NCBI GenBank assembly: GCA_965153355.1
Contig: OZ231126.1
Location: 35,278,001-35,342,000, forward strand
Length of the DNA stretch: 64,000 nt
Source of the DNA: Flaccisagitta enflata
Lineage: Eukaryota
Direction: 5' to 3'
The position numbers were made by a program, and so were the translations under genes. The notes under the pieces are model-generated. The model did not search any database. It was given only the letters and a program-made list of their open reading frames with translations, and had not been told where the DNA came from. Position 1 is the stretch's first letter, and every line of letters starts with the position of its first letter. Below, piece after piece: positions 1 to 47,720 of this stretch.

Positions 1-1
1 A

Positions 2-1377: not shown

Positions 1378-1681
1378 GTAATTCTTGTCGAAACCGTATT
1401 TGAGCTGCTGTTTACAGATTAATTTCTGTCAATCCTTGTCAAACATTGGCAATCATCTTTGTCAATCAATCAATAAAACAATCAGTCAATCAGTCAATCA
1501 TTTTCAATCAGTCAATCATTTTCAATCAATCACTTTCAATCAGTCAAGCGGTCAATCAATAAATCAATCAATCAATCAATCAGTCGATCAATCAATCAGT
1601 CGATCAGTCAAACATTTTGAATGACATCATTTTTGAATAACATCATTTTCAATTATCCCTCTTTTTTTTTATTGAAACAAG

Positions 1682-4600
1682 GCTGTACGTGGACAGCTGG
1701 TTCAGGGACCAACGGCAGCGTTGCCTGAGATGGATGCCTTACACGGGCCCTTCTCTTCTCCTGGCGTATGACAGGATTCTCACGCTGTGGCACCGTCAAT
1801 ACCCGTATCCGACGCCACAGCAAACTAGAGACATCGCAAAGAAAATTCAACACTCAATCGCCAGCGTGGAGAAATGGCGCGACCATAAGATAAGGTCGAC
1901 GCGCAGGGTAGGCGTGCCTCGGGAAATATTTCTTTCCACCCGATATTTATCTCCAGAGAGCGAGCGCCAGGAGCCCAATCAATCAACTAATCGATTCATT
2001 CTTCCCAACAACGTGACAAGCACCAGACCGGGAGAAAGAGAAATTGCGCCAAAACGATCAAACGAGACTCTGGAGTCTACCCCGAAGCGTCTGAAAGCAG
2101 CTACCCGCTCGTCATCAAAATGTCTGGAAACCATCATCCCCAGCTGCCATCATTCCCAGCTGCCATCATCCAACAGCCAACATCAGTCTCCATTCAAATC
2201 CCCGAGACAACAGATTCCAGACTCGTCAATCGAAATAATCCAGGAGGAAATAACTGTGAGGGATCTCTACGGCCTGAATGCCAACAACGTCAACAGCAAC
2301 AACGTCAACATCGAAAACGAAACCACGACATCAAAATCGTCGTTGTCGAACCCACAAAAGGGGAGCGACGACAATGTCGACGACAACAACGACGACGACG
2401 AGAACATGGAAAATCCTGCAGGAAACGCAGATTCGTCGAATTTGAATCATTGGACATCCGACATAGAGGCGGAGGAAGCGCCGGAGCCGCTGGTTTCAAC
2501 CACGACGACGATGGAGACGACGACGACGACGATGACGACGACGACGATGACAGCTACCTCGTTAACATCGACGACGACAACGACGACAATGATGACGACA
2601 ACGACGACGACGACGATGGCGACAACAGTTGCATCAACGACGAAAAACGACGATTTTACACCACCGCAGAATACTGTAAACGAGACCAACAAAATCTGTT
2701 CGTACTCTGGATCGTCCTCGTCGTCCTTGACCTATTCTCAATCGTTTTCTGCGTGTTCCTCTCGCTCGCACGTAAACCCAACAACAGCGAATAACGAACA
2801 ATCTAACAAAGCGAACAACAACCATCTCGTTGACACATCTTCGTTGCCACACGACCAAACAACCGCCACCACAGCCTCAACAACAACAGCGGCAACAGCA
2901 ACAACAGCAACTTTTACAAGCAACAGCAACTTCAACAGCTTCAACAGCTTCAACAGCAACTTCTACAAGCAACAGCAACTTCAACAGCTTCAACAGCTTC
3001 AACAGCAACTTCTACAAGCAACTTCGGCGATGGGATGCAACACAAGCCTCGTCGCCGATCCACCAGCGATAACACCCGACTCCTCTTCATCCCCCCTTTG
3101 CCCTCCACCGCCTTCTCTTTCTCCCGCCGCGTCCTCTCTTCACCTTCAACCGCCTCATCTTCAATCGCCTCATCTTCAACCGCCTCATCTTTCTCCCGTT
3201 TCCGAACTGCCTTCGTCTCCCGTTCCAATAGATTTAAGCGCTGGTACAACAACCCCAAGAAACCTCTATTTTCTTCGCGCTCCGTCTCCGACTCGGGAAT
3301 GCCCAACCTCACCACCGGTTTCAGTGGAAGCGGAAGTGGATGTCGGGACCCGATATTTATCTCCAGGATATTTATCTCCAGCAAGCGAGAGGGGGAAATG
3401 GGACGATCCCAAAGTCAAAGCCCACAATTCCGACATACTATGCTTATCAGCCAGCGCCAAAGAGGATTTAAATTCAATTATTAATTTGGCTCGTTTCCAT
3501 GCTCCTTCTGGATGGGTGGAAACGGTCGAAACTATTGCCCGGAGGACCTGCGGCACAGTGGACGAACTTGAAAAAAGGATACGGAAGGGCCCAGACGCGA
3601 CATCTATCCCCTTAGGCTCTCCGCTCATTGACGTCTGTGGAGAGGCGAGTGTCATTGATGAACCAATGACACCGGATAATCTTGTTTTCGCGCCAAACCT
3701 CTCGCCAAGAGAATCCGCTCCCGTTTCACCGATGATTGACAATCCCGCTTACGCGCCAGCCAATAACGCCGCCTCTTCTCACCCACGTCATCCTCTTCAT
3801 CCTCCTCCTCTTCCACCAAAAACAAACACTTACACATCTCCTCCTCCTCATCCTCCTCCCCCTCCTCCTCTTCCTCTGGCTCCTCCGCTACCCGACGATC
3901 GTCATCAACTTCCTCCTCCTCCTCATCCTCTTCTTCCTCTTCCCCCACTACCTTCCTCCTCATTGGAATCTCATTACGCGATACCCAACAACCCTCCTTC
4001 ATTTACCCCTCCTCCTCCTCAACGTCCTTCCTCCACTCAGCAGCCTTTACTGCGCCTTCCTCCACCACGTCCTTCCTCTACAATTCAATCTTCGTCACAG
4101 GTGTCCTTTCCTCCTTGTCCTTCTCCTTATCCCTCACACCTCATCCCTAGACACACGCCCCCTTATTCTCTTCCTATCCCCACAGCTCCTCCTATCTCTT
4201 CTCTTATCCATTCTACTCCTCCTACCGCAGGACATCTGTTGCACGCTCCTCCTATCCCTTTTTCTTTCCCCTCTGGTCCTTCCCTTATACAATACCCCAC
4301 CGACTTGACTACATCCCATCTCTCTCTTTCCGCGTCTTCTTCATCCTCTTCATCTTCACCGTCTCCTCCTCCTCCTCCTCCTCCTACCAATTTCTCCTTT
4401 GCGACTACAAACGCGATTCCGCCTAATCCGTATGCATCATATCCTTATATTTCAAGGACGACAACCTCTACAACCGCCTCGGTAACAATCTCGATAACGG
4501 CCTCCTCAACAACAGCCTCAACATCAGCATCTTATCCTTTTCCATCAACCGAGAATTCATACTCGGCTCTATTTCCGTATTACTATAATCTCCTTTACCC

Positions 4601-4700
4601 AACGCTTCCATCCATACTCGGCCGATGCCGACCAATCAAGCGCCCACAACGCCAACATCGACATTCCTGCCGCAACCGCAGCCACCACGTCGAAGGATAA
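1682..4700 (+). CDS. Next exon of the same gene: completes repeat 2, encodes repeat 3 and long Thr/Ser/Gln/Pro-rich regions
   Basis: Acceptor after a T-tract (AACAAG|G, 1681/1682). The phase-2 splice gives ...HLTLNR-LYVDSWFRDQRQR in the frame of ORF 1689-4700. Repeat 3 reads WHRQYPYPTPQQTRDIAKKIQHSIASVEKWRDHK. PIDLS lies at 3225-3239. Reading frame beyond about 4590 is ambiguous. Confidence 0.65.
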
Positions 4701-5137
4701 ATTGGGACTGGGAGAGAGTGAAAGAACAGCAAGCGGCGGCGTCGACACCAACACCAACATCTCTTCCGCAACCGCAGCCGCAACCACGGCAACTGCAATA
4801 GCAATTGCAACAACAAATACAACCGACGCCAATGACGCCAAAACCAACGCCTCCACCGAAGCCGCAGCAGCGACCAGGGCATGACTTGCAGGACCCGCAT
4901 CAACAGCAACAGCAGCAACAGCAGCAACTGCAGCAACTCCAGCAAATCGGGTAATTTCATTCTTTTCTCTCTTTACACACCTTGACTAACAGACTGACGG
5001 GGCAACAAAATCTTTTTTTCTTTGTCTCGCTTGTCTCGCTTGTCCCATTCTTTTCTCGCTTGTTCCATCTGTCCCACTCGTCTCATTTGTCTCACTTATC
5101 CACCATCTCTTTCGCTTATTTATCATTTTTTCTTCAG

Positions 5138-6179
5138 ATCATCGATATGCCCTGATCAGCAGCAAACTTCATCATTCACTGCAACAGCAGCAGCGCCAAC
5201 AGCAGCAATAACATCAGCCGCTTCCCGCTCATCGCATACATTTGCGTATCCATATACGTCTACACCGTCGTTGACGCCGGCGGAATCATCGCCGATTTCC
5301 TCATTAACGAATTTATCTCTTTCCGACCGGCACGGCGCCCACCTTGCCACTTTCATGAGTGACAACGAGATAACGCTTTCTTCGACAATCGACCACAGCG
5401 CCGGATTTCCGGCGGTCTACATGGACTTTGTAAAGCAAAAAGAACATGAAAAAATGAAGGAAAAAGAAGACCAAATACTTTTTGAAAAGAAAAAAAAAGA
5501 AGACGAAAAATTGAAGGAAGAAAAAGCCCAAATGCGTTTTGAACAAAAAATGCTTCGGTACAAAGAAAAGAGAAAAAAAGAGAAAGAGGAAAAAAGAGAA
5601 AATAAGCATCTACTGCAACAACATAAACAATGCGCGGATGCTTTCGCGCTGCTTGAGCAGCTGCGTCCGCTTTCGACGGATAATTTAACGCCCCCACAAC
5701 AACAAGAACAACAACAACAACAACAAGAACAACAACAAGAACAACAACAAGAACAACAACAAGAACAACAACAAGAACAAGAACAAGAACAACAACAAGA
5801 ACAAGAACAAGAACAAGAACAACAACAACAACAACAAGAGCGTCAACCGCAATCGAATCCACAACGCCGAGAGGAGATCCAAATCTATCTTCAGCAACAA
5901 CAGCAACAACAGCAACTACAGCAACAGCAACCACAATCCAACGAAAGTTCCCACGATGCACCCGCTGCGATATTACGACCCATACCGCTGCATCCGCTGC
6001 ATGCAAGAACACTGGCGCCAGCGCCGAGAATCGGATGTCATCGCATGCCTCCCGTGGTGACTTCGAGCGCCTCCGCCGCTTCGTGCGCCTCCGCCGCTAC
6101 CCTCAAACGCGCCTCTTCAAATGTGTGTCCATTTGTTTGCGTTTCACCGCCCCCACCGGAAGAGGATAAAACTGGTTAG
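5138..6179 (+). CDS. Probable terminal exon encoding a Lys/Glu coiled coil and a Gln/Glu-rich tract
   Basis: Donor GG|GTAATT at 4950/4951 and pyrimidine-rich acceptor TTCTTCAG| at 5137 are phase-compatible with ORF 5022-6179. Joining it to the upstream exon needs a frameshift and crosses a TAG at 4799. Confidence 0.4.
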
Positions 6180-6232
6180 CGGAACTTTATTTGTCGCGTC
6201 AACGTGTACATAGGAAGAGGCGGCGGCGTCTA

Positions 6233-6234
<2 letters not shown>

Positions 6235-6305
<71 letters not shown>

Positions 6306-6343
6306 AGCATAAAAGAGGGTGCAAGTGTTGTAGTGTAAAAGAT

Positions 6344-6380
<37 letters not shown>
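6235..6380. repeat. Two (GT)n microsatellites
   Basis: Direct observation. Confidence 0.95.
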
Positions 6381-6382
<2 letters not shown>

Positions 6383-9009
6383 GCAATTTCTTTTTTTTCT
6401 TAACAGTACCATTGTACGTAGTGTGTAAAAAAAAACACTCTCTAGGGGGCCCTTATAAGGCCCCGTAGATCTTTGAATGCTAATATAAAATGTAATAGTA
6501 CTTGATTTTTACATAAATGGTATCATTGGTGCTATTCAAAAGTAGTGTTACGTTGTATTTTGTAACTACCTAGTACGTAGTAGTACGTAGTATTATGTAA
6601 TTACCTTGTATTACGTTGTACTATAAATTGTATACATAAATGATATCATTCGTTATGTACAGAAGTAGTACTAACAATTATCATTAAGGTTGTGATTACC
6701 CTATATATGAAAGATGGACAATATTAACTACTCAACTATTACTACTACTACTCTTCTTTCAAAACTGACATTGACAGCAGTGTTGGTTGGCTTTTTGTCA
6801 TTAACCAAATGTCTTTATGCTACTTTTACATACGCAGTTCAATGGTACATGAGTCAAAAAGATCTTTTTTTCTTATGTGATAACCATGGTTATGTTTGAT
6901 GCAATATAAAAAAAAGGACAAAACGGGTTAGAGTTACAAATAAATCGCGGTGAAAGAATGATCAACAAGTGGTCATCAGGTTACAGTCTCGCATATTTAG
7001 AGGTGAAGGAATGGCGAAAGAATGATTTACTGGTAGATTCTTATAGATTCGTGCATATCATTTGAATATCTCAAGAGGAAACGCTTTAATAGATTTTGAC
7101 GAGAGCTTGGATTACATGTTAAAGCTTTTGTAATTCGGCTTGACTGCTTATCGTTAGAATGTTTTAAGAAAAAACACTTTTGTAGATTTTGACGAGAGCT
7201 TGGCTTACGTCTGTAAGCCGGCTTGACTGGTTCTTATAGATTCCCGCGTACCACAGCTTTTTTCATTAAACGTCTCAAGAGGAAACGCTTTCTATAGATT
7301 TTGACAAGAGCTTGGCTTATGTCTGTGGAATATCGCACTTAATTTTACTAATTTTGTGATTATTTGTATCTGCATATTTCTTTGATTCGCCCTGTTTGTT
7401 GCCCATTTTGTGGATTTATATTATTGCTGATTTTTCTTTCTTTAGATCAGTGATAATGTCATTCGCTCTTCATCCATGATCAATCTTGGGGTGCGTTTCC
7501 TTACCTGGTGAGTTGTGGTTGGACTCGGTTGGTTGGTTAGTTGGTCGGCTTGGTTGGTTGGTCAGTTGGTCGGTTGGTGATGTCTAGTTATTTAGTTATT
7601 TAGTTTTTGAGTACGTGAGTTATTGAGTTATTCAGATTGATAGGTTGTTAGGCTAACCCTTTTCTTCTCTTCTCCCCTCTCCCTTTTCCTATCTATTTCA
7701 GCGTTTTTATACCCCTTTCAACCATAGAAGATATTATTGATGGCGACGACGAAAGACTCAGTTCGCATGGATGCGCAATGACTTTCTTTGGGCTTCGTTG
7801 GAGTTGACGTGGTTGGCGTGGCGCGTGGCGTAGCATCGAGAGGATTGGCGCGGTCGTGACGCGGCGACCGACGGACCGATTCATCGTCATCGACGTTAGC
7901 GCATAGGTACTTTGACGGTTGGAGACAGTGTTTTACGCGGTTCTTTACAGTATAAAAACGGTACCAGAGATTGATCAAGATTTGTGTTTTATACCACCAC
8001 AATGAGCACAAAAAATACACAGGCCCCGGGTGGCGACGGAGAGCCGCCGGTGTGGAGGCTGCAATGTCGAGCGTAAGGCAGGTGGCACCTGGAGTCGCTG
8101 TGGGTCAATGGCGTTCAGCGTCGCTCCAGTCCCGGTAAAAGAAGGGCCGTGTTGATAAGAAGGCGAGCGATCGGCGAACAAATTCAAAGCTTCTAAAAGC
8201 GAGAAAATAGAACAATACAACGCGTGTGTGATAGACGATGTATCTGGCCGAGCATGGCGGCAAATGATTTGATGGTGGACATATCTGACATCACCGTGCC
8301 AGACGGAGCACCCTAAAGCCGTTAACATATAGGAAAGAGAAAGGCGAAAGGAAAGTGTCTTCGGCAGTTCTCCAATGTGAAAAGAAGCACAAGCTGGCGC
8401 GCTTGCGGTCGAACAGGGCAACGCCATGAGAATGCGGCATAATGGACAAAACAACGCATATCAGAAGCGAGGGCGCCAAGGTGAGGGAGGAGGGCACCAT
8501 CGAGGGGCTCCAAGCGGGAGGAGGAAGGGGAGCGGAGGCTGGAGCGGCGGGAAATAGCCGGCGCCGAGGCACCGAAGCCGCGCCGGCGAAATCAGGTCGT
8601 GAAATGGCGACAAGGCGGCGCCAGCGAGCAGGATAGCGGGAATGTTCAGAGGATGCGTCATAGCGCCTCAACAGGCGAATGCGGCTTGAAGCGGTATAGC
8701 GGCGGAAGCAGCGTCCACGTATTACCAGCAGCGCCGGCTGAGAAGGAATTGCCAAATCAGCCAAAGAAAGCGCCCGGATGATCGTGAGATCGATACAAGC
8801 GAAAGAACAGATGAGGAACAGAAAAGAAGAACGTATGGAAAGCGAACAGAAGAAGCAGAGTGAAATGGATGAGGCGGAAAGCATTGAGAAGTGGAGAATG
8901 AAGACAGAAGAACAAAAGCAAAACTCCACCAAATCAAAATAAAGGAATCGAAACGGATACATAGAACAACAACAAGCGGTGCGGCAGCGGTGAGCCGGGC
9001 GCCAAGTGC

Positions 9010-10596
9010 GTGAGGAGGCTCGAGCAGTCCGTCAACGGGGGCGAAGAGAGAGCTTTGAATCCCAACGCCGCGGTAGAGAGCTGGGCAAAAAACAATGCCA
9101 GCGGCTCTGTTCCGACGACGCCCGTGAGAGGAAAAGTGCCACTACAAAGGAAAGGAGAAAAGAAAGTGGCATTAAAACTCGACCTCGACAAAATTCAACT
9201 GACGCCAAAAGGAATCACTAAACCTATGGTTCCTCCAGCGAAGGCGGTTAAGAAGCCAATCGTTCCGTCGGTGAGACCCAAAAAGGTGAACAAACCAACG
9301 ATACAAAAACTACCACCAAGGGAAACAAAACAAGAAAAAGAAAAAGGAGACGCGAAAAACTTGAGAGAGAAAAAGGAAAGGATAGAGAAAGAAACGATGG
9401 AGCTCATGGCGAGGCTTCAAGAGTTGCACAATTCGGCGCAGCAGGTGGAGGAAGGGTTGGAAAGGGAGAAGGAGGAGGAAGAGGAGGAGGAGGAAGAAGA
9501 AGCGCCAAAAACACCAACCACACCGAGTTGCGCTGGAAGTGCAAATCAAGAAGAGTTTGTGCGAGTCCAAATTCAGATGTTTGCGATGGCCCAGCTAAAA
9601 GAAGCTCGCCCGGTGAAGAAATTTGCGGGAGTAGGCAAAGGAATGAGTTTTGCCAAGCATATGCTGAAGTTTGAAACTGCTTTGGAGATAGTCAGTCTGT
9701 CGGACAAAGCCAAATTAAACGAATTTCAGCATTACTTCGAGGGCGCAGCGTTCCAACTGATCGAGGCTGAAACATTGGAAAAAACAGACGCAGGAAAGGC
9801 GGTGAGAGCGGCAATTGAGAAGCTGAACAAAAAATTCGGCCTGCGAAAAGAATCGGCGATGGAAATGCTCGAGGAGTTGTTGCAAGGAAAACAAGTCGGT
9901 GAAAAGGACCATGGCGGCTTATTGATGTTTTACTATAAATTGCAGAGCATCTACACATTAGCAAAAAGCACCGGCAGAGGAGGAGAATTCGAGAATAAGA
10001 TGATCGTCGAGTCAATCCTCTCAAAAAAGACCCCCCACCTGACAGCGAAATGGTCAAAGAGAGTGGTGAAGAACATGATGTCAGATGGGGAGACGCTGGG
10101 CTTTGAGACGTTTCTCGAATTCCTTGACACCGAGCATACAATTGCTGAATTGTGCTACAGAAACTCGAGTCAGGCGCAGAATAGCAAGCCTGTAGGGGCG
10201 GCCAAAGTGGCGGCGACAACGGCAACAGCGCCGACAAAAAGCGGCGGCAAACCGACGGCAAACGCGACAGCGCCCAATACAGCGGCTGCAGCACCGACGG
10301 CCGGAAGCTGTGAACGTTGCGGAGGCCAGCATCGCATTCCAGCGTGCGACATTTTCAAAGGCCTGTCCAGCGCGGATAGGAGAAAATTTTGCATAAACAC
10401 TCGCATATGTTATTTGTGCCTTGAGACCGGACATATGGCGAGAAACTGCAAATCGACGGAAATGTGCGCCATCTGCGGCATAGGTCACCACACCTTGCTC
10501 CACCCAGACGAATCCTCAGGTGCCCCGCCTACCCCGGCGGGAGCCAATGGGGGAGGAGGAGGGGGAGGAGGAGGAGGAGGAGGCGGAAACGCATGA
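9010..10596 (+). CDS. gag: BEL/Pao Gag (true start uncertain)
   Basis: Three C-terminal Cys/His knuckles CERCGGQHRIPAC, CYLCLETGHMARNC and CAICGIGHHTLLH, typical of BEL/Pao. Confidence 0.88.
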   Translation: MRRLEQSVNGGEERALNPNAAVESWAKNNASGSVPTTPVRGKVPLQRKGEKKVALKLDLDKIQLTPKGITKPMVPPAKAVKKPIVPSVRPKKVNKPTIQKLPPRETKQEKEKGDAKNLREKKERIEKETMELMARLQELHNSAQQVEEGLEREKEEEEEEEEEEAPKTPTTPSCAGSANQEEFVRVQIQMFAMAQLKEARPVKKFAGVGKGMSFAKHMLKFETALEIVSLSDKAKLNEFQHYFEGAAFQLIEAETLEKTDAGKAVRAAIEKLNKKFGLRKESAMEMLEELLQGKQVGEKDHGGLLMFYYKLQSIYTLAKSTGRGGEFENKMIVESILSKKTPHLTAKWSKRVVKNMMSDGETLGFETFLEFLDTEHTIAELCYRNSSQAQNSKPVGAAKVAATTATAPTKSGGKPTANATAPNTAAAAPTAGSCERCGGQHRIPACDIFKGLSSADRRKFCINTRICYLCLETGHMARNCKSTEMCAICGIGHHTLLHPDESSGAPPTPAGANGGGGGGGGGGGGGNA

Positions 10597-10600
10597 CTAG
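10594..10600 (+). promoter_or_regulatory. Putative programmed stop-codon readthrough signal UGA-CUAG between gag and pol
   Basis: GCA TGA CTA GCC. The gag (9010) and pol (10669) ORFs share a frame and the 24 intervening codons are open. Confidence 0.65.
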
Positions 10601-12942
10601 CCGTACCTAAACAGAACTCAGTCTTTAAAGTCGGAGGAGATGATGGAGCATGGCGTCTGATTGTACCGTTGTATGTAGTGGGGGAAAATGGGGAAGAGAT
10701 TGGCACTTATGCCCTTCTCGATGGTGGTGCGAACCGGAATGTGGTGTCGGAGTCGATATGTTCGCGTTTGGGAATAGGAGGAAGAAATGTGAACATGAAA
10801 GTGACGACCTTGGACAAAACTGTGGAAGGCGTCAGAAAAGTAGCAGATGTGATGGTGAAGGGGACAAATGGTTTTGAACTGAAACTGAGCAACGCGATTT
10901 TTGGAGAAATAATAGCCACAGAGGGTGACAGACCCCCCCGAATTGCGGATGTGGAGGGGATTGAACACCTAAGCGACATCGAGTTTCCCGCTTTTCCGGA
11001 AGAAAATGACGCCGACAACCAAATAGGAGTGATTATCGGGGCTGAACACGCCCGAGTATGGAGCTCTGGCGAAAGGCGCATTGGCGATGAATCACTTCCG
11101 GTGGCGTTGGAGACGGGATTCGGCTATTGTCTGATAGGCCCCAAGAAAAACATTGACTCGCATTGTTTTGTTTGTAACCATGTTTCCTTTCAGAGTTATC
11201 CATCCAACACAGAGAAAGAGATGAAAAAATGTTTTGCGAGTGAATTCGAAAGAGCAAAAAACGACGAAGAAACAATGTCGGTGGAGGATAAATTTGCTCT
11301 TAGGCAACTCGAAGAATCGATTGTATGGGACTCTACAGTGGAAAGATATCGAGTGAGCCTACCCCACAAACGCGGAAGAAAAGCGACGGCAGAGAGGATA
11401 AACAAAGTGGATTCAAGCGGTATGGCGTTGGACCGCTTGTGGAGAACGGCACGACAAATGCGAAAGGACCCGGAGAGGAGAAGGGTCACATTTGAAACAA
11501 TGCGTCAATTCGAAGCGAAGGGCAGGGTCGTGAAACTTGATCCGAAAAAGCATGCAGCAACGCCATCGGACAGGCCAAAGTGGACAATCCCCATCCATGT
11601 CACAGATAAGCCAGGGAAACCTGGTCAAGTTCGTATCTGTCATGATTGTAGGGCATCTGTGGGGGGTGTATGTTTGAATGATTGTCTGTTAGATGGCCCC
11701 CAATTGGCATGTGACATTCGTGGCGTGTTGATGCGGTTTCGTGATGGGGGTGAAGTTGCGGTAGGGGCTGACATTAAAGATTTTTTCCATGAAATCTATA
11801 TTGCAGAGGAAGACGAAGGCGCCTTTACGTACTGGTGGTTTCCGACGGAGGAGATGGACGAAGCGGAATTGAATGGATTTTTGGGTCACGTGTTCGGCGC
11901 CAAAAGTTCCAACTTCGTCGCGATCTTCACGCAACGGTACCACATCAATCAGAGGGCGAGAGAATACGGTCCTCAAGTAGTGGAGGCGTCAAACCGCAAT
12001 CTGTATGTCGACGACCTATTGAAGTCTCTGCGCAATACGAAAATAGCGCGTGATTTCCGGATCGCGATTACTGCGGCGATGAAGGATGGCGGCTTCACTC
12101 TCTGCAAGTGGCGCTCGTCAAAACCGGAAGTGTTGGAGGAGGCTGATCCGACGCCGGAAATAAAGGACTTTCGAAATGCCGCAGCCCCCGGAGAGGATGT
12201 GGGGAAAGTTTTGGGAATGCGTTATTCGTTCTCCGCGGACAAGTTTTCATATGCCCCAGAGAAAGAAAAAGCGGAAATGAAAGTGGAAACGAAACGCCAG
12301 ATGCTACAAGTGATAGCGTCATTTTTCGACCCCCTCGGATTCTTGGACCCTTTCGTGATTTGGGCGAGATTCATTCTGCAACAAGTGATGAAGACTGCGA
12401 TCGGATGGGACGAGAAAAACATAGAGGAAGCGTTGCTGGAATCATTTGCGGTGTGGCAAGGAGACTTTGAATTTCTCAAAAAATTTGAAATTGAACGATG
12501 GACTGCGACGTTGGAAACTCAGGACGGTGAAAAACAATTGATGGTGTTCAGCGATGCGAGTAGCAAAGGATACGGCGTAGTGATATACGTGCGCCGGAAG
12601 ACGCCGGACGGGAAGATTCACGTCGCGATCGTATGCTCAAAGGCGCACGTGGTGCCGGTGAAAGACGCTGAGGCTGGGCACCACGATTCGATGCCGAGGC
12701 TGGAGTTGCAGGCCGCGCGATTGGCAGCAAGGATGAGATCGTCCGTAGAAAAAGAAACAGGGAGTTATGACAGTATCATTATGTGGACTGACTCTGAGTG
12801 TGTAATTAAGCAACTTAATGATACGGTCACCCGATTTAAAGTTTACTTTTCCAACCGCATCTCAGAAATACAGGCGTTGACGAGCGTGTCCGAGTGGAGA
12901 TGGGTGCCTTCGGGGGATAACCCGGCCGACGACTGCACCTAA
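10597..12942 (+). CDS. pol: BEL/Pao Pol: aspartic protease, reverse transcriptase and RNase H; truncated before integrase
   Basis: YALLDGGA (PR); GADIKDFF, VFGAKSS, LYVDDLL (RT); VFSDAS, PRLELQAA, WTDSE, NPADD (RNase H). Confidence 0.92.
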   Translation, partial: LAVPKQNSVFKVGGDDGAWRLIVPLYVVGENGEEIGTYALLDGGANRNVVSESICSRLGIGGRNVNMKVTTLDKTVEGVRKVADVMVKGTNGFELKLSNAIFGEIIATEGDRPPRIADVEGIEHLSDIEFPAFPEENDADNQIGVIIGAEHARVWSSGERRIGDESLPVALETGFGYCLIGPKKNIDSHCFVCNHVSFQSYPSNTEKEMKKCFASEFERAKNDEETMSVEDKFALRQLEESIVWDSTVERYRVSLPHKRGRKATAERINKVDSSGMALDRLWRTARQMRKDPERRRVTFETMRQFEAKGRVVKLDPKKHAATPSDRPKWTIPIHVTDKPGKPGQVRICHDCRASVGGVCLNDCLLDGPQLACDIRGVLMRFRDGGEVAVGADIKDFFHEIYIAEEDEGAFTYWWFPTEEMDEAELNGFLGHVFGAKSSNFVAIFTQRYHINQRAREYGPQVVEASNRNLYVDDLLKSLRNTKIARDFRIAITAAMKDGGFTLCKWRSSKPEVLEEADPTPEIKDFRNAAAPGEDVGKVLGMRYSFSADKFSYAPEKEKAEMKVETKRQMLQVIASFFDPLGFLDPFVIWARFILQQVMKTAIGWDEKNIEEALLESFAVWQGDFEFLKKFEIERWTATLETQDGEKQLMVFSDASSKGYGVVIYVRRKTPDGKIHVAIVCSKAHVVPVKDAEAGHHDSMPRLELQAARLAARMRSSVEKETGSYDSIIMWTDSECVIKQLNDTVTRFKVYFSNRISEIQALTSVSEWRWVPSGDNPADDCT

Positions 12943-14936
12943 TTCAAACACCTGAAGTACTAGGGGGGTTGAACGAGCAGTCATTTATTTTGGATGGTAT
13001 ACTCTACCGTACTTTTAAAACTATCCTACCCGTCGACCCTCAAGAGCTTTCAGTGCATTCTCGCTCGATTTCGTTTTATATATTGGATAAGGTTGCACTG
13101 CTTAATCCACATAGGTAACCGAATTTGACTTTCTTCAATAACCGCAAAAAAAACCAGTAACCCTTTTTTTTTTAGTAACCGATAACCCTCACACAAATTT
13201 TTTTCTAATCTATTATCTACAGGATTTATCTCTCGCTAACGGTGCAATACCAAAAAGAAGGAGATGCTGCAATAACAGCTGATGATAATATCACAGTGTC
13301 ATGCCCAATTATGTCCCATGGTTTGATTGACGATGTTTCTGTAAGTGAAAAATTTATCCTGGAAAAAATGTCTTTTTTGTTTATCTGGTCCATTTCATTT
13401 ATAATCATCATTTTTTTTTCCAAAGGTAACGATAGGCGAATCCACACTTGACCGCCAGTCACAGTATTTTGCGTTAATCACGTATCTTGAGATGCTTTTT
13501 GAAAGGACCCAAAAAGAAAAAGACAGCTACCTTCAATTTTTTGAAGGTTTGTTAAAAAAATACTGTAAACGATAAAACATTTCAGTTGCGGACACGCGAC
13601 TCTATAAAAGGCTTTGCCCGTCCGTCCGCCCGTCGGTCCGTTGGTCCCTTGCGGACACACCCCTACCCATGCAGAAAACGCCCTTAGCCGTCCGTCAACA
13701 ACTGGTGGCCATTTGTTTGTTTATTTGTCTGTTTAGGGTTTGAAGAAGACGAAGCAGAAAAGTATACAACGCCAGCACTGGCATTAATCGCCAAAACTGT
13801 GGACGGGGTAACAACCCACACAGGAAAGAATGGCAGGGGAAGGAGAACTTTAAAAATTCTTAAAAAACAAAAACAGGAATTTTTCATGTCCTTAAAAAGC
13901 GCATTCTTAAACTTCAACAGTTTATTACCATCGAATCTTGAAGTTGGAATTCGTATATATCTAACATCGCCTGAGAAGTATTTTACAACCACATCTGCGG
14001 CCAGTAAACCAACATTTAAGATTTTGGATGCTAAACTACTTGTTGAGTTCATTTTGTTAAAACCAGTTCTCCTTCAAGCCATGGAAAGTCGTTTGGCTAA
14101 ATCTTTCCTGCAAATTGACTTCCTAGCCAAATTTGTCAAGTCATTTAGGTACTCATGTGTGTCTTTTCCAATTTTTGTCTTTTAGCCAGCCAAGAGTACG
14201 ACTGGTATTGACATGTTTTTTTTTATCTTTTGTCTTTTTGTCTCTTGTCTTTTTTGTCTTATGTACCAGCATTGAGACTGGAATATTGGAGAAATCGTTT
14301 AACATTTCGACACGAGATCCGATATCAAACATCATAGTCTTTCTTTCTCCAAATACGGTAATAACTCTGTTATACATTGAGTTACGTTATCGACTGCTAT
14401 CGACATGGATTACATTAAATAACAATTTAACATTTTATTTTCAGACACACGTTGGTAGATACCAGGAAGATTTTTATCGGTTCCAAAGAAATGGTCTTGT
14501 TCATACTTACGTCTCAAGTGGAGTTTCCGCCGTTAAAATACCCAGCTTAGCTTATAGCAATAATGGGGGTCAACTGGAGGGTTATGATTTCTCGACAGAC
14601 GCTGGTAAAAAAGCTTCATATTTTTACGTACTGCAACAATTCGGCAAACTTAATGAAGAAGGTTCGGCCAGCTTGCCTTACAGTCTTTGGTTGGAGGACA
14701 AATTTTTGTTGCCTTTTTGTTTAAGCGCTAATAACAATGTTGGGGGGGCTAATGCAGGACTTATGAACAAAACACAACCACGGTCTATTTCACCAAGTAA
14801 TGATTTCAGTATCTACTGTAAGTTTGAAAATCCTGTTCAAAAAGTTTTGAGGCTCACGGTCGTTTATTCTCAATTGAGGTCTTTAGCTATTGAGCATGAT
14901 AGAACGACATTTAAAGGCTATGAAGCTGAACAATAA
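12939..14936 (+). CDS. Maverick/Polinton-type double-jelly-roll major capsid protein, 6 exons (12939-13114, 13223-13340, 13426-13546, 13737-14148, 14270-14357, 14445-14936); start codon missing at the BEL junction
   Basis: Five GT-AG introns with matching phases (2,0,1,2,0) give an open frame of about 468 aa. Its motifs are colinear with the Polinton capsid: IYLSLTVQ..HGLIDDVSVTIG..YFALITYLEMLF..LNFNSLLPSNLEVGIRIYL..FKILDAKLLV..VKSFSIETG..DFYRFQ..LLPFCLS..CKFENPVQKVLRLTVVYSQLRSLAIEHDRT. Confidence 0.85.
13581..13665 (+). repeat. Host HINE-like repeat fragment inside capsid intron 3
   Basis: AGTTGCGGACACGCGACTCTATAAAAGGCTTTG followed by GTCC-type repeats matches host copies at about 36815 and, in reverse, about 38280-38320. 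Confidence 0.8.
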
Positions 14937-14938
14937 AT

Positions 14939-15493
14939 ATGGCATTATTCACATCTGATGTACTCATTACCAGCGATTCAGATTTAATCCATTATTTGAG
15001 CAAGTTTAAAAGAGCCTATAACGCTATTGGAAAAGGAAGATTTGTAGTGAATTATGATAAGTTACCTCAACTGTCAAGAGTGTGTAAAAAACAAAAGTCG
15101 TTTGCCGTGATTATTAATACTATGCATAGTTCGGAAACTAGCACTGGCAAAGTTGGTCACTGGACTGTCCTTCTTATAGAGAGAATAACTGGTAAAACTG
15201 GTAGATGTATATACGTTGATGGATTATTATCAAACTATCGTTCAAATCAAGACTTGAAAAAGGGAATTGATAATTTTTGTAAATATAACGACTTATACCT
15301 TGATGTCTGGAATGTGAAGACGCAAAGAATTAACTCAAACTATTGTGGCTTTGAAATTGTTTATTTTGTGTGGTATTTTGCACATCATGGTTTGAAAGGT
15401 GTATATAAATTAAAAACATTACTAAAAAAATACAGCCTTTTTGGAATTGAAAACTATATTCTTAAAAGAGCTTACAAATTGTGCACGGTTTAA
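14939..15493 (+). CDS. Adenain-like cysteine maturation protease (Maverick/Polinton PRO)
   Basis: 184 aa with VIINT...GHWTVL...YVDGL...KTQ...NYCG, the H-D-Q-C catalytic order of adenovirus/Polinton proteases. ATG follows 2 nt after the capsid stop. Confidence 0.85.
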   Translation: MALFTSDVLITSDSDLIHYLSKFKRAYNAIGKGRFVVNYDKLPQLSRVCKKQKSFAVIINTMHSSETSTGKVGHWTVLLIERITGKTGRCIYVDGLLSNYRSNQDLKKGIDNFCKYNDLYLDVWNVKTQRINSNYCGFEIVYFVWYFAHHGLKGVYKLKTLLKKYSLFGIENYILKRAYKLCTV

Positions 15494-15529
15494 TTTCCTG
15501 TGCGTCATTGTGCTTTGTTTTTTCAGATA

Positions 15530-15745
15530 ATGGATGTTGATGAGAACATCCCATCTGTTTTTCTCAACATACGCACCACAATAACATCTAATACAAAGTA
15601 TTTAAAAGTACTTTTGATTATCATTGTGCTTGGGCTACTTGTGACGGACTTCTCCTTTGATAGACTTACTTCTTGCATGTTGAGAAATAACAATACTAAC
15701 GCCTTCATGGTCAACAACGAGACAAAAACACCCAATGTACTATGA
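15530..15745 (+). CDS. Small single-pass membrane protein (71 aa), unknown function
   Basis: Hydrophobic KVLLIIIVLGLLVTDF followed by NNT and NET sequons; preceded by TTTTTTCAG|ATA ATG. Confidence 0.5.
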   Translation: MDVDENIPSVFLNIRTTITSNTKYLKVLLIIIVLGLLVTDFSFDRLTSCMLRNNNTNAFMVNNETKTPNVL

Positions 15746-15881
15746 TAATTCTCTTCAGCTTCGTGCTTTAAACAGGTACTAAAAGATAAGTGGTCCTTTA
15801 AATAAATTTTTTGGACGGGCCACTAACAGATGTTTTTTTAAATTCATTAAAATAACAAGGGATCTTCTGAAAAACGAGAAA

Positions 15882-16010
15882 ATGGGACGGAAAAGAAGAA
15901 GAGGTCGAAGACGAAGAAAAGGGAGAAGACGTCGGCAACGAAAGCGGGGAGGAAAATACGTTAAAAGATTTCAAGCTAAAACAACAAAAACTCGTAAACG
16001 ACGGCGCTAA
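15882..16010 (+). CDS. 42-aa Arg/Lys-rich protamine-like peptide (candidate virion core protein)
   Basis: MGRKRRRGRRRRKGRRRRQRKRGGKYVKRFQAKTTKTRKRRR*, 27 of 42 residues R/K; AAAATGG start context; AATAAA signals downstream. Confidence 0.5.
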   Translation: MGRKRRRGRRRRKGRRRRQRKRGGKYVKRFQAKTTKTRKRRR

Positions 16011-16542
16011 ACTATGTTTTTTTATCCAGTTTATGTTGATTATAGCTATATACGGCTGTAATTATGTCTATGTAAATAAAAGAGCAGTTGCGAATAACAG
16101 TTGTAAATGATAATAATTGTAACCATTGTAAATAACAAAGAATTACTACCTAAATAAATAACATAAAAATGAATAACCTTTTTTTTCAGTCTATATAACG
16201 CCACTTTTTATGTATTTATTATCTAGCTATATCATGCATGGCAATGACAGACAAAATAGGAAATGATTTGAAAATTGAAACATTCTGAGCCCACAAAATT
16301 GTATAAACAATATCGAGGCAAAATGAATTCAGCGGTGGATAATTTTTCCGCCCCAAATGCCGCAGGCGGCTTTGAAATAATTAAAAAAATATAAAAAAAA
16401 ACCGAGGGTGTTCAGCGTACCATATCATACTACTTCCATCCATCCGTCCGCCCCCCCCAGGCCCTCTCAGGCCTGAAATCTGACCTCTCAGGCCTAAAAT
16501 GTGCCCTCTCAGGCCTGAAATCTGCCCTCTCAGGCCTTGAAT

Positions 16543-16552
16543 NNNNNNNNNN
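16543..16552. other. Assembly gap
   Basis: 10 N. Confidence 1.
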
Positions 16553-18314
16553 TTGGTAATCATCAATTTTTTGCATAGAAAAACGTTTTTCTGTATCATA
16601 TGCTTAGGAAATGTGAGGAAAAAGCATGCGAAATTGATGGATTTTTAAACAAAAATAGATTCTTGTGCATTGCATGTTCAGCGTAAAACTAAAATCTGTC
16701 TCTTAATTCAAAATTTTTACTTGAAAACATGGCATCAGTCTAAACACTTTAAATAAACACATGTGTTTGTAAATTGTAAAATTTTGCATTCAGAGCATTT
16801 GATTCGGTTTTTTACGTGGCAACATCTTAAGTTTTCCGTGCAATTTTTTTCCAAGAATTCTGTTGTTTCACTGAGTATCCTGCGACTTTACCAATGCGGA
16901 TCAATACCATTGGTCAGTTAACTGGTTTTTAGTTAATTTAGGGAGTATAAAGCATGCATAACACTTTAGTTTTTGCCACATTTCCCCTGCATAGCAGCAT
17001 ATTCTATCACAGTACAGAACAATTTGTCAAATTTGGCGCTGTACTGCACCACGACATAATCTCTCAAATGCAACAAATGGTTATTGTCAGCAAGTAAGGG
17101 GTATGAACAGCAAACACAAATTTATTGTCAGTGGAATGATCGTAATCATCTACTGAAACATAATTCAGAGCAAAAATTGGGCAGACATGTGTAACATAAA
17201 ATGTGATAAGTTTATCTTGCAAACAACAAATCTGTGGAATGGGTCAAAAATTGGCATTTTTTAAATCATGCGACTTTAGATAAACTAACTTACAAGAGTT
17301 GCACGTTCTTTGTTTTTGTAATCTTTGATTCCCTATGCAAATTTGTTTTTTTTTCAGTTTACACAAGTCAGGTTACAAAATAGAAAAATTCTGATCTCAA
17401 TATCTCTTATTTTCAAAAGAATATGGATAAAGACTGGCAGATTTCACCGATGGCTAAATCAAGGGATATATTTCTGTTTTCTTATCAGTTTTCAATGGAT
17501 GACTCTAAATTGATATTTATGAATTAATGTCTAGCAACAGCTAAAATATTCAAAATTATGAAAAAATTAAAACAAAATGAAAGTTGTAGGGGCAATTGAG
17601 CTTGCCAATATGCAAAATATGTCTTAACCTAAGGTGTTGAATGGCCTTATCAAAAATTTAAGAAAAAAGTCAGCAATCAAGTAGAATTTCTAACTTATGC
17701 ATGAATAAGAAATTCCGCCCTAAATTATTTCATGTCATAAGAAAATGAAAACCATGTTACTCTGGAATATGTGGAATAAGTGGAAGACTGATTTTGACTT
17801 CTTTCCCGACAATTCTTCTTATTCTTATTTCATTTTTATACAAATATCTTTATTCCCTATATGTATCTTTTTATTTCCTTTACATGGAAGAATAAAATTG
17901 CACTCACACAAGGTTCTCTCCTATGTCATCTGCACTCATTTGTAATCTTCTTTCATCTTGCAAGGAATCGGATGTCACATGTAACAATATGTGAGCCGTA
18001 GCCACAATCGCGATGGGAAGGAGAGTGGTGATGACCAAAATGTGCCAATCTCGGAAACTAAGTTAGAATGATTTAGAATGATGAGTTAAAATGCTTTATT
18101 CTTAAATGTGAAACTGTAAACCATCATTCAGATCGAGAGAAAGACTAGGTCAGAATGATGCACCGAAAGTATTTCTGGAAAAATATATCCAAGAGACAAG
18201 ATTTTTTAACATGCTGCTGTATTTTCATTGATTGATGTTTATCAAACCCACTCGACCAACCACATTCAACCACATTCAACCAACTATATTCAAACAACCT
18301 CACTTGACCAACCA

Positions 18315-23455: not shown

Positions 23456-25307
23456 CATATGAGGAATTTTCCTTCTTGCATCTTGTTCTTTTTGGGCTGT
23501 GGCCCGGAAGGGGATGAAGTCCTGTAGAACACAGGGGACTTTTGTTTGTCTGTCCGTTTGTCCATTTGTTAGTCCCCCCCAGGCCCTCTCAGACCAAAAA
23601 TCTGCCCTCTCAGGCCTGAAATCTAACCTCTCAGGTCTGAAATCTGCCCTTTCAGGCCTGAAATCTGCCCTCTCAGGCCTGAAATCTGCCCTCTCAGGTC
23701 TGAAATCTACCCTTTCAGGCTATGAATCTGCTCTTTGAGGTATGAAATCAGCCCTCTCTGGACTGAAACCTGTCCTCTCAGATTTCAGGCCTGAGGGGGC
23801 AGATTTCAGACCTTAGAGGTTAGATTTCAGGCCTGAGAGGGCAGATTTCAGGCCTAAGAGGGCCTGGGGAGAGATTGACGGATGGACAGACGGATGAACG
23901 AAAGTCCCCTATGTTCTACAGGACTTTGTCCCCTTCAGGGCCGCTACCCTGCTTCCTCTCAGTTCAATTTACAACCATGCAAAGCAGGGCAACAGGTATC
24001 GCTGACCACATATTGCCATTGGGCGACCTGTTTGTCATCTTCTTTGTATCTCCCCCCCACCTCAAAGTCCATATCCCAACGTCAAGGCCAGAAATTCCAG
24101 TCTTGAGGCCCAAATCCCAACCTGGTGGCCCAAATCCCAGCCTTGATCCCAAATCGCCGCATTGAGGCCCAAATCACAGCGTTGAGGACCAAATCACAGC
24201 AAAGCCAAAAGGCCTAAATCCCGGCCTCAAGGCCTGAATCCCGGCCTCAAGGCCTAAATCCCAGCCTCAAGGCTCAAACATCAGTCCCATGGTCTAAATA
24301 TAAAAAAAAAGCCCAAATTTCAATCCCTGGAAGGCGAAGGAGAAAATTCCCCACTTGTGTTGTTGTTGTTATTTGCCGGGGAGTCTTACCCAGAAGGAAG
24401 GTGTACAGATTTGGCTTCTTCGAGAAGCTATACGGCCACGACATTGGGCTCATGAACTTTTGCCTGTTTGTATTTAGACTCAAGTTCAGGTGTGTCAGGG
24501 TGTCATTGTGTTGTTTTGTATTGTCATACGGTCTACCCTCCCCTCTGAGCTAGCTATTATTCTGGATGGAACATCCAGCGACCCCCTCAAACCCCACCTT
24601 GATGGCAGGTCTTCAAACCTCCCCTTGAAGGACTTGCCAAGAGCGATGCTTGAACCAGCTATCCAGTGGGTGACAAGCGGGCTCCCTACCACTGTGCTAT
24701 TCTCCCCCCCCACTTGTGTGAAAGCATGTGTCATCATCCTCTTGGGGCCACTGCCCTGCTCCCTCCCTCAATTTCAAACACAACCTACTAAGGGAGGGCA
24801 TGGGTATCGCTGGCCATCCAACGCCATAGGCTGATCTCCATATGTAAACCAAATTGGTTGAAAAATGCCTAAGTTACGCGCATTTTTGGGCAGCGGCCCC
24901 AAAGGGGACAAAGTCCTGGAGAACAGAGGGAGAATCTGTCCATTCATCCGTCAGTCTGTAAGTCCATCCTTTCCCCCCCTATCCTCATTGCTTTGTCTCC
25001 TTTGGGGCCTATTCTGACTCAAATTCTGCCAAATAGCCCAAATCCAAGCAATATGGCCCAAATCTATGCAAAATGGCCAAGCATCATGATCCAAATCCTC
25101 TGAGGGCTTTTCACTCGAGACCCTTAAGTGACCCTTGAGTGACCCTTAAGTGACCCTTAAGTGACCCTTAAGGGTCTTGTGTGAAAAGCCCTCTATATTG
25201 GCCACTCAGACCTATATTCTGGCCTTTGATACCTAGATTCTGACCAGATTTCGGTCATTTTGCTCAAATTTGGGCCATTATGCTAGGATTTGGGCTATTT
25301 TGCTTAG

Positions 25308-26261: not shown

Positions 26262-27327
26262 CTAAAAACAAAGGAAAATCCGTGAAAACAAGCTCTACAA
26301 AGGGCAACAGTCGCGGGCGGTTGGGCAAGGGCAACTGATATGAATTCAAAAAAACAAATTCAAAAAGTAACGCGGGGTCAAAATATCGTTACGGACGCGT
26401 GGGCAGGGGCATCCAACCCAGATCCACACCTAAACTCCCACCCCACACACAAACATACACAAAAAGTATCCATAATGCTCGCATTCCCACTTTTTGCCTC
26501 AATCATTACGGACCAACGGACGAACCGACAGACGGACCGACGGACGGACAAAGCCTCTTATAGAGTTGCGTGTCCGCAACTAAAAAATGTTACAGACATA
26601 CAAATGGATCAACAGACGGACCGACCGACCGACAATTAAGCGCAGAGTTGCGTGTCAATGACTTACAAACGGTCCATTGTGCAATAGTCAATAACTGTAA
26701 AAGCAAATTTCCGCCCCTGCTCCCCCGTCCGCGATCATATTTCGAATTCGTAACCCCACGTTATTTTGCCAGAATAATTTCTGACAGTTTCTATTTCGTC
26801 TGTCCGACCATCTGTCCATACGCCAATTGGTTGGTCATTCCGTCCTTCGGTCAGTCCGCCCATTACGCCTTCGTTTTTTGGCCAAAGTGAGCTCCCAAAC
26901 AGAATTTCACGATCTACAAAGATGTTTTGAGAGCCTTTTTAGTCTGTCGTTTCATCTGTCCGTTCGTCCATTTGTCTCTCCATGTAGGTCACATGTTTAG
27001 CACGGTTGGTCTTGTTTCAAAGATGATTCATCATTTGCAAACCAATTGCAAGAATGTTGTACATTTGACTTTGCGGCTCGAAGATGACTTCGCCGGAATT
27101 TTGACATGGTCATTCCAATGTTTTCGGAAGCCGGCATCTTCAATTTACGAGGAGCTGGTCCAGCACTGTAAGTATTGGCGCAAAACCGGTACGCGGTGAT
27201 AAAGAGGGTCGTAAGGGCAGGTGATGTGAGGCCAAAAAGATTTTCAAAACCCCTATAGTGTAACAGACAGATGAACCACATTTATGTTGAAAGCACAAAC
27301 ACACACAGACACACACACAAACACACA

Positions 27328-46659: not shown

Positions 46660-47720
46660 AAGTCTGCTGGTTTGAGTCTGCTGTTTTAAATCTGCTGTTT
46701 TAAGTCTGCTGTTTTAAGTCCGCTGATTTAAGTCCACTGATTTAAGTCCGCTGGTTTAAGTCCGCTGGTTTAAGTCCGCTGGTTTAAGTCCGCTGGTTTA
46801 AGTCCGCTGGTTTAAGTCAGCTTATTTAGGACTGCTGGTTAAGGTCTTCTGGTTAAGGTCTGCTGGTTTAGGTCTGCTGGTTTAAGTCTGCTGGTTTAAG
46901 TCTGCTAGTTTAAGTCTGCTGGTTTAAGTTTGCTGGTTTAAGTTGGCTGGTTAAAGTTGGCTGGTTAAAGTTGGCTGGTTAAAGTTGGCTGGTTTAAGTC
47001 GGCTGGTTTAAGTTGGCTGGTTTAAGTCGGCTGGTTTAAGTCGGCTGGTTTAAGTCGGCTGGTTTAAGTCGGCTGGTTTAAGTTGGCTGGTTTAAGTCGG
47101 CTGGTTTAAGTCGGCTGGTTTAAGTCGGCTGGTTTAAGTCGGCTGGTTTAAGTCGGCTGGTTTAAGTCGGCTGGTTTAAGTCTGCTGGTTTAAGTCTGCT
47201 GGTTTAAGTCTGCTGGTTTAAGTCTGCTGGTTTAAGTCTGCTGGTTTAAGTCTGCTGGTTTGGGTCTGGTTTAAGTCAGGTTTAAGTCTGGTTTAACTCA
47301 GTTTTAAGTCTGGTTTAAGTCTGGTTTAAGTCTGGTTTAAGTCTGGTTTAAGTCTGGTTTAAGTCTGGTTTAAGTCTGGTTTAAGTCTGGTTTAAGTCTG
47401 GTTTAAGTCTGGTTTAAGTCTGGTTTAAGTCTGGTTTGAGTCTGGTTTGAGTCTGGTTTGAGTCCGGCTTGAGTCTGGCTTGAGTCTGGCTTGAGTCTGG
47501 TTTAAGTCTGGTTAAAGTCTGGTTGAAGTCTGGTTAAGTCTGGTTCATGTCTGATTTATGTCCGGTTTAGGTCTGGTTTAGATCTGGTTTATGTCTGGTT
47601 TAGGTCTGGTTTAGGTCTGGTTTAGGTCTGGTTTAGGTCTGGTTTAATTCTGGTTTGAGTCTGGTTTGAGTCTGGTTTGAGTCTGGTTTGGGTCTGGTTT
47701 AAGTCTGGTTTAAGTCTGAT
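46660..47720. repeat. Compound minisatellite: 14-bp GGTTTAAGTCNGCT units changing to 11-bp GGTTTAAGTCT units
   Basis: Direct observation; lies inside a HINE-like copy (about 45943-47800). Confidence 0.9.

Follow-up and report, generated by a model that had tools for sequence, protein, structure and literature searches.

The probable right-hand end of an endogenous Maverick/Polinton-type element, with an apparently intron-bearing capsid gene, in the genome of Flaccisagitta enflata

What kind of element has left a capsid gene and a protease gene side by side in an animal chromosome, and where does it end? The question is raised by a 64,000-nucleotide stretch of the Flaccisagitta enflata genome (GenBank assembly GCA_965153355.1, contig OZ231126.1, positions 35,278,001 to 35,342,000, forward strand). 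We call the whole of this stretch the window and count positions from its first letter. It is eukaryotic DNA, rich in microsatellites and dispersed repeats, and its first 12.9 kb hold nothing viral-looking. An earlier reading of the letters (the original prediction) had proposed that a compact virion-morphogenesis cassette runs up to position 16434, the right terminal inverted repeat (TIR) of an integrated Maverick, with TCCATC as the target-site duplication (TSD).

Our reading is that an endogenous element of the Maverick/Polinton type (adintovirus-like) is inherited in this marine animal's genome and that 12939-16434 is its right-hand end; we put the probability of this reading at roughly 0.78. 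In function and layout the segment matches a late-gene module of a Maverick/Polinton followed by the terminus of the element, and membership is supported by the fold of the capsid protein, the fold of the protease and the end motif. All the late genes lie on the + strand and point to the end of the element. The G+C content is 34-39% in 13001-17000 vs. 49-54% in 8001-13000, the retrotransposon side to the left. For its kind the element seems mostly ordinary, the apparently intron-bearing capsid gene being the single unusual trait. The predicted layout is present in the sequence: a capsid stop codon, two nucleotides, a protease with the H/D/Q/C set, two small open reading frames (ORFs), AATAAA signals, ACTACT at 16434 and then the host repeat. 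By fold, the ORF before the protease is a capsid protein, as claimed, and of the double-jelly-roll (DJR) type; the protease ORF, by fold and catalytic residues, is of clan CE and adenain-like; and the (ACT)2 at the host junction, the Maverick-type terminus of the prediction, is the published commonest 3′ end motif of vertebrate Mavericks (PMC8097293). "Compact" was wrong at the left side, where the five exons of the capsid gene stretch from 12939 to 14936 and a junction with a BEL/Pao retrotransposon has taken the place of the first 14 codons. The parts of the element, including those of the major capsid protein (MCP) gene, are as follows.

12939..13114, + strand: MCP exon 1, with the first 14 codons (the ATG among them) missing; all eight candidate relatives match (68-98% identity)
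13115..13222, + strand: putative intron 1 (GTAACC...CTACAG, 108 nt), from a reading of the sequence; its donor coincides with the end of the ORFs of seven relatives
13223..13320, + strand: putative MCP exon 2, an open frame with a weak, uncertain donor
13321..13736, + strand: putative intron 2, containing a high-copy host repeat at ~13580-13650
13737..14148, + strand: MCP exon 3 (tblastn with residues 1-147 of the relative P0014: 36% identity, E 2e-22)
14149..14269, + strand: putative intron 3 (GT...AG, 121 nt), whose excision restores the frame
14270..14357, + strand: MCP exon 4, which aligns to the relatives P0008, P0014 and P0023
14358..14444, + strand: putative intron 4 (GTAATA...TTTTCAG, 87 nt); relatives are uninterrupted at this site
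14445..14936, + strand: MCP exon 5, by fold the C-terminal jelly roll, and the stop codon (51 relatives; fold matches)
14939..15493, + strand: clan-CE (adenain-like) cysteine protease, 184 aa, intact (catalytic residues; fold)
15530..15745, + strand: small ORF of 71 aa whose translation has one hydrophobic helix (YLKVLLIIIVLGLLV); a membrane-type role is suggested
15882..16010, + strand: small Arg/Lys-rich ORF of 42 aa, by its translation possibly a DNA-condensing core protein
16011..16434, + strand: AT-rich non-coding terminal region of 424 bases without an ORF, the putative right terminal repeat, with (ACT)2 at 16429-16434

Among 1.84 billion representatives, a search with the last exon of the capsid gene (14445-14933) gave 51 relatives at E ≤ 1e-3, of which 21 reach ≤ 1e-10. 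Save for one low-complexity match, these are short pieces of 49-305 aa, and the 11 relatives scanned for Pfam families gave nothing meaningful; what is uncovered here is a capsid protein family of 51 clusters for which Pfam has no model. A structure model of one relative (P0008, from 53 sequences) has a mean predicted local distance difference test score (pLDDT) of 80.9 and a predicted template modelling score (pTM) of 0.79. It was compared with 48,161 PDB representatives by a fold search independent of Foldseek. Rows 1-11 (Z 9.6-7.2) are without exception DJR capsid or scaffold proteins, each matched through its C-terminal half: among them are the MCP of Emiliania huxleyi virus 201 (EhV-201; Z 9.6), hexon (9.4), Sputnik (9.2), faustovirus, p72 of African swine fever virus (ASFV) and the MCP of Paramecium bursaria chlorella virus 1 (PBCV-1) (9.1), mavirus MCP (8.0) and PRD1 P3 (7.2). 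Unrelated beta-sandwiches rank below them (Z ≤ 6.8). Because all these rows are DJR proteins aligned over their C-terminal halves, the exon-5 region is, by its modelled fold, the second jelly roll of a DJR major capsid protein.

Two further comparisons agree on the class of the protein and are broad as to the virus. In BFVD, 26 matches at E ≤ 1e-3 comprise 14 named capsid or hexon proteins, one adomavirus LO7, nine unnamed and two uncharacterised proteins; an adintovirus capsid stands at rank 31. Foldseek against the PDB returned PBCV-1, PRD1/PR772 P3, EhV-201, Singapore grouper iridovirus, Sulfolobus turreted icosahedral virus, PM2 and hexon (E 5e-4 to 1.4e-2), with some single-jelly-roll coat proteins intermixed. 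The C-terminal jelly rolls of the mavirus (6g45) and Sputnik (3j26) MCPs superpose over 155 and 165 residues, at just 6-8% identity. Since giant-virus MCPs and hexon score as high as the virophage MCPs, the fold assigns the protein to no single virus group.

The capsid stop codon (TAA, 14934-14936) is followed by AT and then by the ATG of the protease at 14939. Only five close relatives of the protease (63-96% identity) were found among 5.8 billion clustered proteins, and the six aligned sequences, the window's own included, all have H74, D94, Q129 and C136. In an AlphaFold model (pLDDT 51.9), in which positions are approximate, His74 and Asp94 fall on neighbouring strands and a long helix begins with Cys136. 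The same PDB representatives, again searched without Foldseek, gave clan-CE proteins by title in 27 of the first 29 rows (Z 9.5-5.4), covering Ulp1/SENP, adenain, poxvirus I7L, ASFV pS273R, bacterial CE-clan deubiquitinases and the YopJ type. The other two, RavZ and Lpg1148, are not placeable by title, and the next row is unrelated (Z 5.1). Monkeypox I7L (9lik) scores 8.9, the adenovirus-8 protease (adenain, 4wx4) 8.6 and ASFV pS273R (6lj9) 7.5, over 150-158 residues; Ulp1 scores 6.8.

The window protease resembles adenain and the other viral clan-CE proteases in the order His, Asp, Gln, Cys, in the place of the cysteine at a helix start and in a gene that adjoins the capsid gene. It differs from them in sequence (7-15% identity) and in having no match to Pfam Peptidase_C5 or C48; neither it nor its five relatives match these families even at E ≤ 10. 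Adenain has Glu at the position where the window protease has Asp. The order His, Asp/Glu, (Gln), Cys on an Ulp1/adenain fold, as modelled here, is that of clan CE. The language-model neighbours of the protein are viral clusters, part of them with Peptidase_C5/C48 (scores 0.93-0.95). We conclude that by modelled fold and catalytic residues the protein is a clan-CE, adenain-like protease, lying outside Pfam C5/C48 as drawn by hidden Markov models.

Where does the element end? Its last bases are ...CATACTACT at 16434, and the ACTACT in which they finish stands directly before host sequence:

16435..16543, strand not assigned: dispersed host repeat entered part-way, with (TCCR)n, a C-run and 21-bp tandem units (alignment A2)

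The boundary is defined independently of the motif. In blastn, the host repeat matches its further copies within the window from 16435 or 16439 onwards. In alignment A2, four other window copies align from 16435 on, each having a different 5′ part of its own. Logan contigs whose fit starts exactly at 16435 number 184 in X1 (a run of the same species), 17 in X4 (a marine metagenome) and 19 in X7, and each is preceded by its own repeat sequence. On the + strand of the window ACTACT occurs 17 times in 64,000 bases (~2.7e-4 per position), so that its landing on an independently defined junction by chance is unlikely. In vertebrate Mavericks, 5′-(AGT)2//(ACT)2-3′ is the commonest end motif, with (AG)3//(CT)3 the other form considered here, and the TSDs are of 6 bp (PMC8097293). 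Position 16434 is very probably the true terminus of the element, because the published (ACT)2 motif sits exactly at the host junction, after Mcp, pro and then 424 non-coding bases. TCCATC (16435-16440) would be the TSD if an integrase made the insertion. The AATAAA signals, on the + strand at 14932, 15801, 16075 and 16153, add little: the window has 84 copies of the hexamer where 86.5 would be expected, no enrichment, and the signals are therefore weak evidence. A second copy of 16011-16434 is absent from the window on either strand, and exact matches numbered 0 both for the last 33 bases in the metagenomes of the Joint Genome Institute (JGI) and for the last 28 in IMG/VR.

The join of ACTACT to the host repeat could in principle be an artefact of assembly at a contig end, the true element continuing elsewhere. 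The contig does end 110 bases on, at a 10-N gap; the flanking repeat has a k-mer depth above 1,000,000 in X1; the listed X1 contig (record 8) stops at 16401; and the other junction of the segment, 12938/12939, already conflicts with the contigs of two runs. On the other hand, unique sequence that enters a repeat and then stops is how a true junction looks in short-read assembly, and a chance break right after the six-base Maverick end motif has a frequency of about 3e-4 per position. We regard an artefact as very improbable.

The 3.4 kb after the gap are AT-rich (29-34% G+C) and hold no ORF of at least 100 aa. Copies of the host repeat family lie at 16435-16543, 23500-23945, 39080-39314, 41148-41465, 51720-52200 and elsewhere. 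A conserved 5′ stretch (...AAAGTCCTGTAGAACACAGGGGAC...) is followed in them by a microsatellite of (TCCG/TTTG)n, then by a run of C and by 21-bp units in tandem (CCCTCTCAGGCCTGAAATCTG), and the copies often form facing inverted pairs (23575+/23871-, 39153+/41390-).

How far does the element reach in the other direction? In the window it is cut off at 12939 by a retrotransposon:

8965..12938, + strand: BEL/Pao gag (8965-10596) and pol (10597-12942), context outside the element; broken off at the RNase H/integrase boundary, directly next to the capsid gene

The pol carries Peptidase_A17 (2.2e-36) and the gag a zinc knuckle (zf-CCHC, 9.8e-4); no pair of long terminal repeats or other direct repeats of the retrotransposon was found in 6400-14000. 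X1 and X4 contigs match the window only from 12939. Those fitting from exactly this position carry other letters upstream, 1110 in X1 (record 4) and 354 in X4 (record 13). Because the contigs depart from the window exactly there, either the sequenced individual has a junction of its own or the assembly was wrongly joined across a high-copy repeat (depth 4800-7400 vs. ~406-440). In the X1 and X4 data the element continues leftwards past 12939. Its part to the left of the capsid gene lies outside the window, the 1110 other letters of the X1 contig standing in that place, and a packaging ATPase and a penton are expected upstream of the capsid gene. The locus also shows where the assembly is weak: at the BEL/Pao junction (12938/12939) and at the gap that opens at 16544.

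A start of the insert at ~13734, inside the same host repeat, would have made it a 2.7-kb fragment, and was dropped. The joints of 13729-13733 to 16453 are only 20-23 letters of TTTG-type microsatellite, and 13737 is a conserved exon start with a further conserved exon upstream.

With so little of the element in view, it might be asked whether it was ever a Maverick. A fragment of another DJR DNA virus, polinton-like or of the 'MELD' kind and without an integrase, might have been captured at a chromosome break by end joining. Such an origin is in keeping with the gene content, which is limited to capsid, protease and small ORFs, with no sign of an integrase, pPolB, TIR or TSD; with the best BFVD matches, which span many virus groups and place the adintovirus capsid only at rank 31; and with a single copy. 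It accounts poorly for an element that ends exactly in a Maverick-type (ACT)2 at the host junction and has the Maverick module order of capsid, then protease. Moreover, in X1 the element continues for at least 1110 bases upstream, and its shortness may stem from the BEL/Pao junction. We consider capture unlikely, and retain a Maverick/Polinton end as the preferred reading.

Next comes the question of the capsid gene itself. In tblastn searches with relatives, the gene extends upstream of the cassette as originally delimited, and its frame shifts at points bounded by GT...AG. The exon-1 homologues were found with 12945-13115 as query. Seven of the eight begin with a MA(D/E/G)-type N-terminus (in P0060 and P0061, MA[ED]TRAPPTFHAPKL-) that has no counterpart in the window, the start of P0062 being different. 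The seven that reach the exon end all have NPH[RKQ] as their last residues, at the point where AG is followed by GTAA in the window; P0067 is cut short. With the exon-2 donor at 13320/13321, the five exons together give 1263 nt and 421 codons with zero stops, and the whole protein would then have ~435 residues. The homology of P0014 and of P0058 starts at the same exon-3 boundary, and in each it is preceded by a pyrimidine-rich translation. Excision of 14149-14269 yields ...FVKSF-S-IETGILEK, a stretch that is continuous in P0014, P0008 and P0037. Excision of 14358-14444 yields ...FLSPNT-THVGRY: the window has 29 extra codons between FLSPNT and THVGRY, P0006 reads FLQPNTTHCGRY unbroken at this site, and P0008 and P0014 are likewise uninterrupted. 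One intron position is kept in relatives down to 68% identity; the others vary, P0014 being without introns 3 and 4, and P0006 and P0008 without intron 4.

Putative intron 2 holds a repeat whose bins have an X1 depth of 112,000-695,000 vs. ~406-440 nearby. The end of this repeat, GCGGACACGCGACTCTATAAAAGGCTTTG followed by (CCGT)n, lies at 13580-13650 and recurs at 26514-26585, 36495-36572, 38256-38323 and elsewhere. Within putative intron 3, a (TTTTGTC)n-like microsatellite at 14220-14260 is shared by many unrelated contigs (depth 409-700 vs. 9-440 around it) and has length variants at 14244. In an RNA run (X24, ~6% of which was read), 31 reads were fitted, all at <95% likeness and all on the host repeat at ~13600 or on (AGA)n at ~15900; these reads are therefore spurious and say nothing on expression or splicing.

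How are such introns to be understood? The core genes of intact vertebrate Mavericks are reported to be intronless (PMC8097293), and so are those of nematode Mavericks. The passages found in the adintovirus paper (PMC8502044) do not mention splicing of these genes, and in PMC3671162 the only introns mentioned are self-splicing introns of giant viruses. Tentatively, and as a possibility to which we give rather less than even odds, the locus may represent a Maverick lineage of marine animals with spliceosomal introns in the major capsid gene. Either the virus would splice its late genes by means of the host, or the module would have gained introns in germ lines and perhaps a host function as well. 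Adenoviruses use host splicing for their late genes.

The second of these routes bears on how the locus is kept and how it varies. In the X1 bins of 14478-15874 the depth of 406.3 corresponds to one contig, with no other contig at ≥85% likeness; the copy is therefore single. Of the sampled words of 13737-16434, two runs of the species itself contain 0.94 and 0.86. Marine metagenomes from several studies contain the stretch as well, at 0.64-0.65 of the words in a study dated 2013-2020 and partly in others. Seawater samples thus commonly contain the host or one of its close relatives. The locus is shared between populations. One X4 contig, ~98.8% identical to the window across 2.5 kb, spans 13618-16108 with 31 differences and takes in the intron that holds the repeat; the relative P0001 is the protease of this X4-type allele. 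The 29 listed differences between the window and the X4 allele were counted by site. Nineteen are coding and 10 non-coding, at a like density in both. Non-synonymous to synonymous changes stand at 3:5 in the capsid exons, 6:2 (codon changes) in the protease and 0:2 in the 71-aa small ORF, and a further protease change, T84P, comes from P0001. These counts are too small to show constraint or its absence.

One might take the pair for domesticated host genes: a viral capsid gene and protease gene that gained spliceosomal introns, were kept for a host function and descended vertically among related marine animals. The four intron-like GT...AG interruptions, whose excision restores frame and homology, speak for it, as do the exon-1 end, conserved at 68-98% identity in all seven relatives long enough to show it, the openness of both genes in the window and of the protease also in P0001, and the 3 non-synonymous to 7 synonymous changes of the capsid gene and small ORF taken together. 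These are countered by the protease, where the counts and T84P show no constraint; by the like density of coding and non-coding substitutions; by a capsid gene that lacks its start codon in this assembly; and by the intact viral end motif and 424 non-coding bases still attached. Domestication seems improbable to us, and we continue to read the locus as the end of an integrated Maverick-type element. The copy shows no clear selective constraint and looks like a resident fossil or a dormant element rather than an active one.

Several results weigh against this reading. On the side of the genes, the DJR assignment covers the second of the two jelly rolls, and neither the capsid protein nor the protease matches a Pfam family. 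The protease model comes from a shallow alignment and is of low confidence. Against PDB sequences the protease gave one match as a single sequence (E 1.3, not meaningful) and five as a profile (E 0.18-0.96), at least four of these being antibody heavy chains. In contrast to the intronless core genes of intact Mavericks, the capsid gene has four putative introns bounded by GT...AG. Pattern searches in the virus and metagenome collections confirmed nothing: the protease had 8 pattern matches in IMG/VR and the protease alignment 204 in JGI metagenomes, the capsid pair (A5) 11 and the exon-1 alignment (A7) 9 in IMG/VR, with 0 confirmed in each case. Two further capsid alignments (A3 and A4) diverge too strongly to yield patterns. 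On the side of the element, the pPolB, rve integrase, packaging ATPase and penton or minor capsid genes that the original prediction led one to look for were matched by 0 of the 121 window ORFs of at least 90 aa (Pfam). No inverted copy of 16402-16434 (≤3 mismatches) or of 16011-16434 (blastn) was found in the window. The 5′ half of the host repeat (...AGAACACAGGGGAC...) was not found in 1-16434. The 16434/16435 junction is bridged by none of the listed Logan contigs, and the assembly gap (16544-16553) opens 110 bases past the end of the element.

The likeness to vertebrate Mavericks is one of layout and end motif rather than of compared protein sequences. It consists in the (ACT)2 at the 3′ end, in Mcp followed directly by pro on one strand and in integration into host DNA (PMC8097293). 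One of their modules is reported as int, minor capsid, pw, Mcp and pro, and their TIRs as 46-1447 bp long with a mean of 402 (PMC8097293), a range that includes the 424 bp of the non-coding end. Most vertebrate Maverick modules are directed towards the centre, whereas here the capsid and protease genes are read outwards and lie against the terminus; and unlike the intact vertebrate elements this one has a capsid gene with four apparent introns (PMC8097293). With adintoviruses the element shares an animal host, a hexon-like DJR capsid and an adenain-type protease, and endogenised copies of adintoviruses are common (PMC8502044). It differs from them in that no PolB, integrase or FtsK-type ATPase is in the window. 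Basic domains of the adenovirus pX type are reported in adintoviruses (PMC8502044), and by composition only the Arg/Lys-rich ORF possibly resembles them.

If these likenesses are taken at face value, the working of the module might be as follows. Its order would be that of a set of virion genes: the DJR MCP gene (~435 codons in five exons), the adenain-like protease, the membrane-type small ORF, the Arg-rich small ORF and 424 non-coding bases. The protease would cleave capsid and core precursors in maturation, as in related viruses, and the Arg-rich protein may condense DNA. The terminal 424 bases ending in ACTACT would most likely be the right terminal repeat of a linear, protein-primed genome, in which the doubled trinucleotide would allow the primed polymerase to slide back. 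The integrase of the element would join the ACTACT end to host DNA, here within a dispersed repeat.

The locus adds an invertebrate Maverick end with the same (ACT)2 as the vertebrate elements, and the shared motif supports terminal reiteration as a general feature of replication in the group. Should the interruptions prove to be true introns, the family would show that splicing of Maverick late genes is possible, or else their survival as host loci with introns; the matter bears on whether Mavericks are to be seen as viruses, fossils or domesticated genes.

Three other features of the window may be mentioned. An open frame of 1019 codons at 1641-4697 is mostly low-complexity (Pro-, Ser-, Thr- and Gln-rich) and has a weak, below-cut-off match to Homeobox_KN in residues 51-79 (E 0.006); it is possibly a host gene of the three-amino-acid-loop-extension (TALE) homeobox class. 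A 690-codon ORF at 48238-50307 (RVT_1, 8.6e-32) belongs to a retrotransposon of the long interspersed nuclear element type. Long tandem arrays in a T/G-rich stretch occupy 46545-47700, with periods of 14 and 11 bases in ~41 and ~39 copies.

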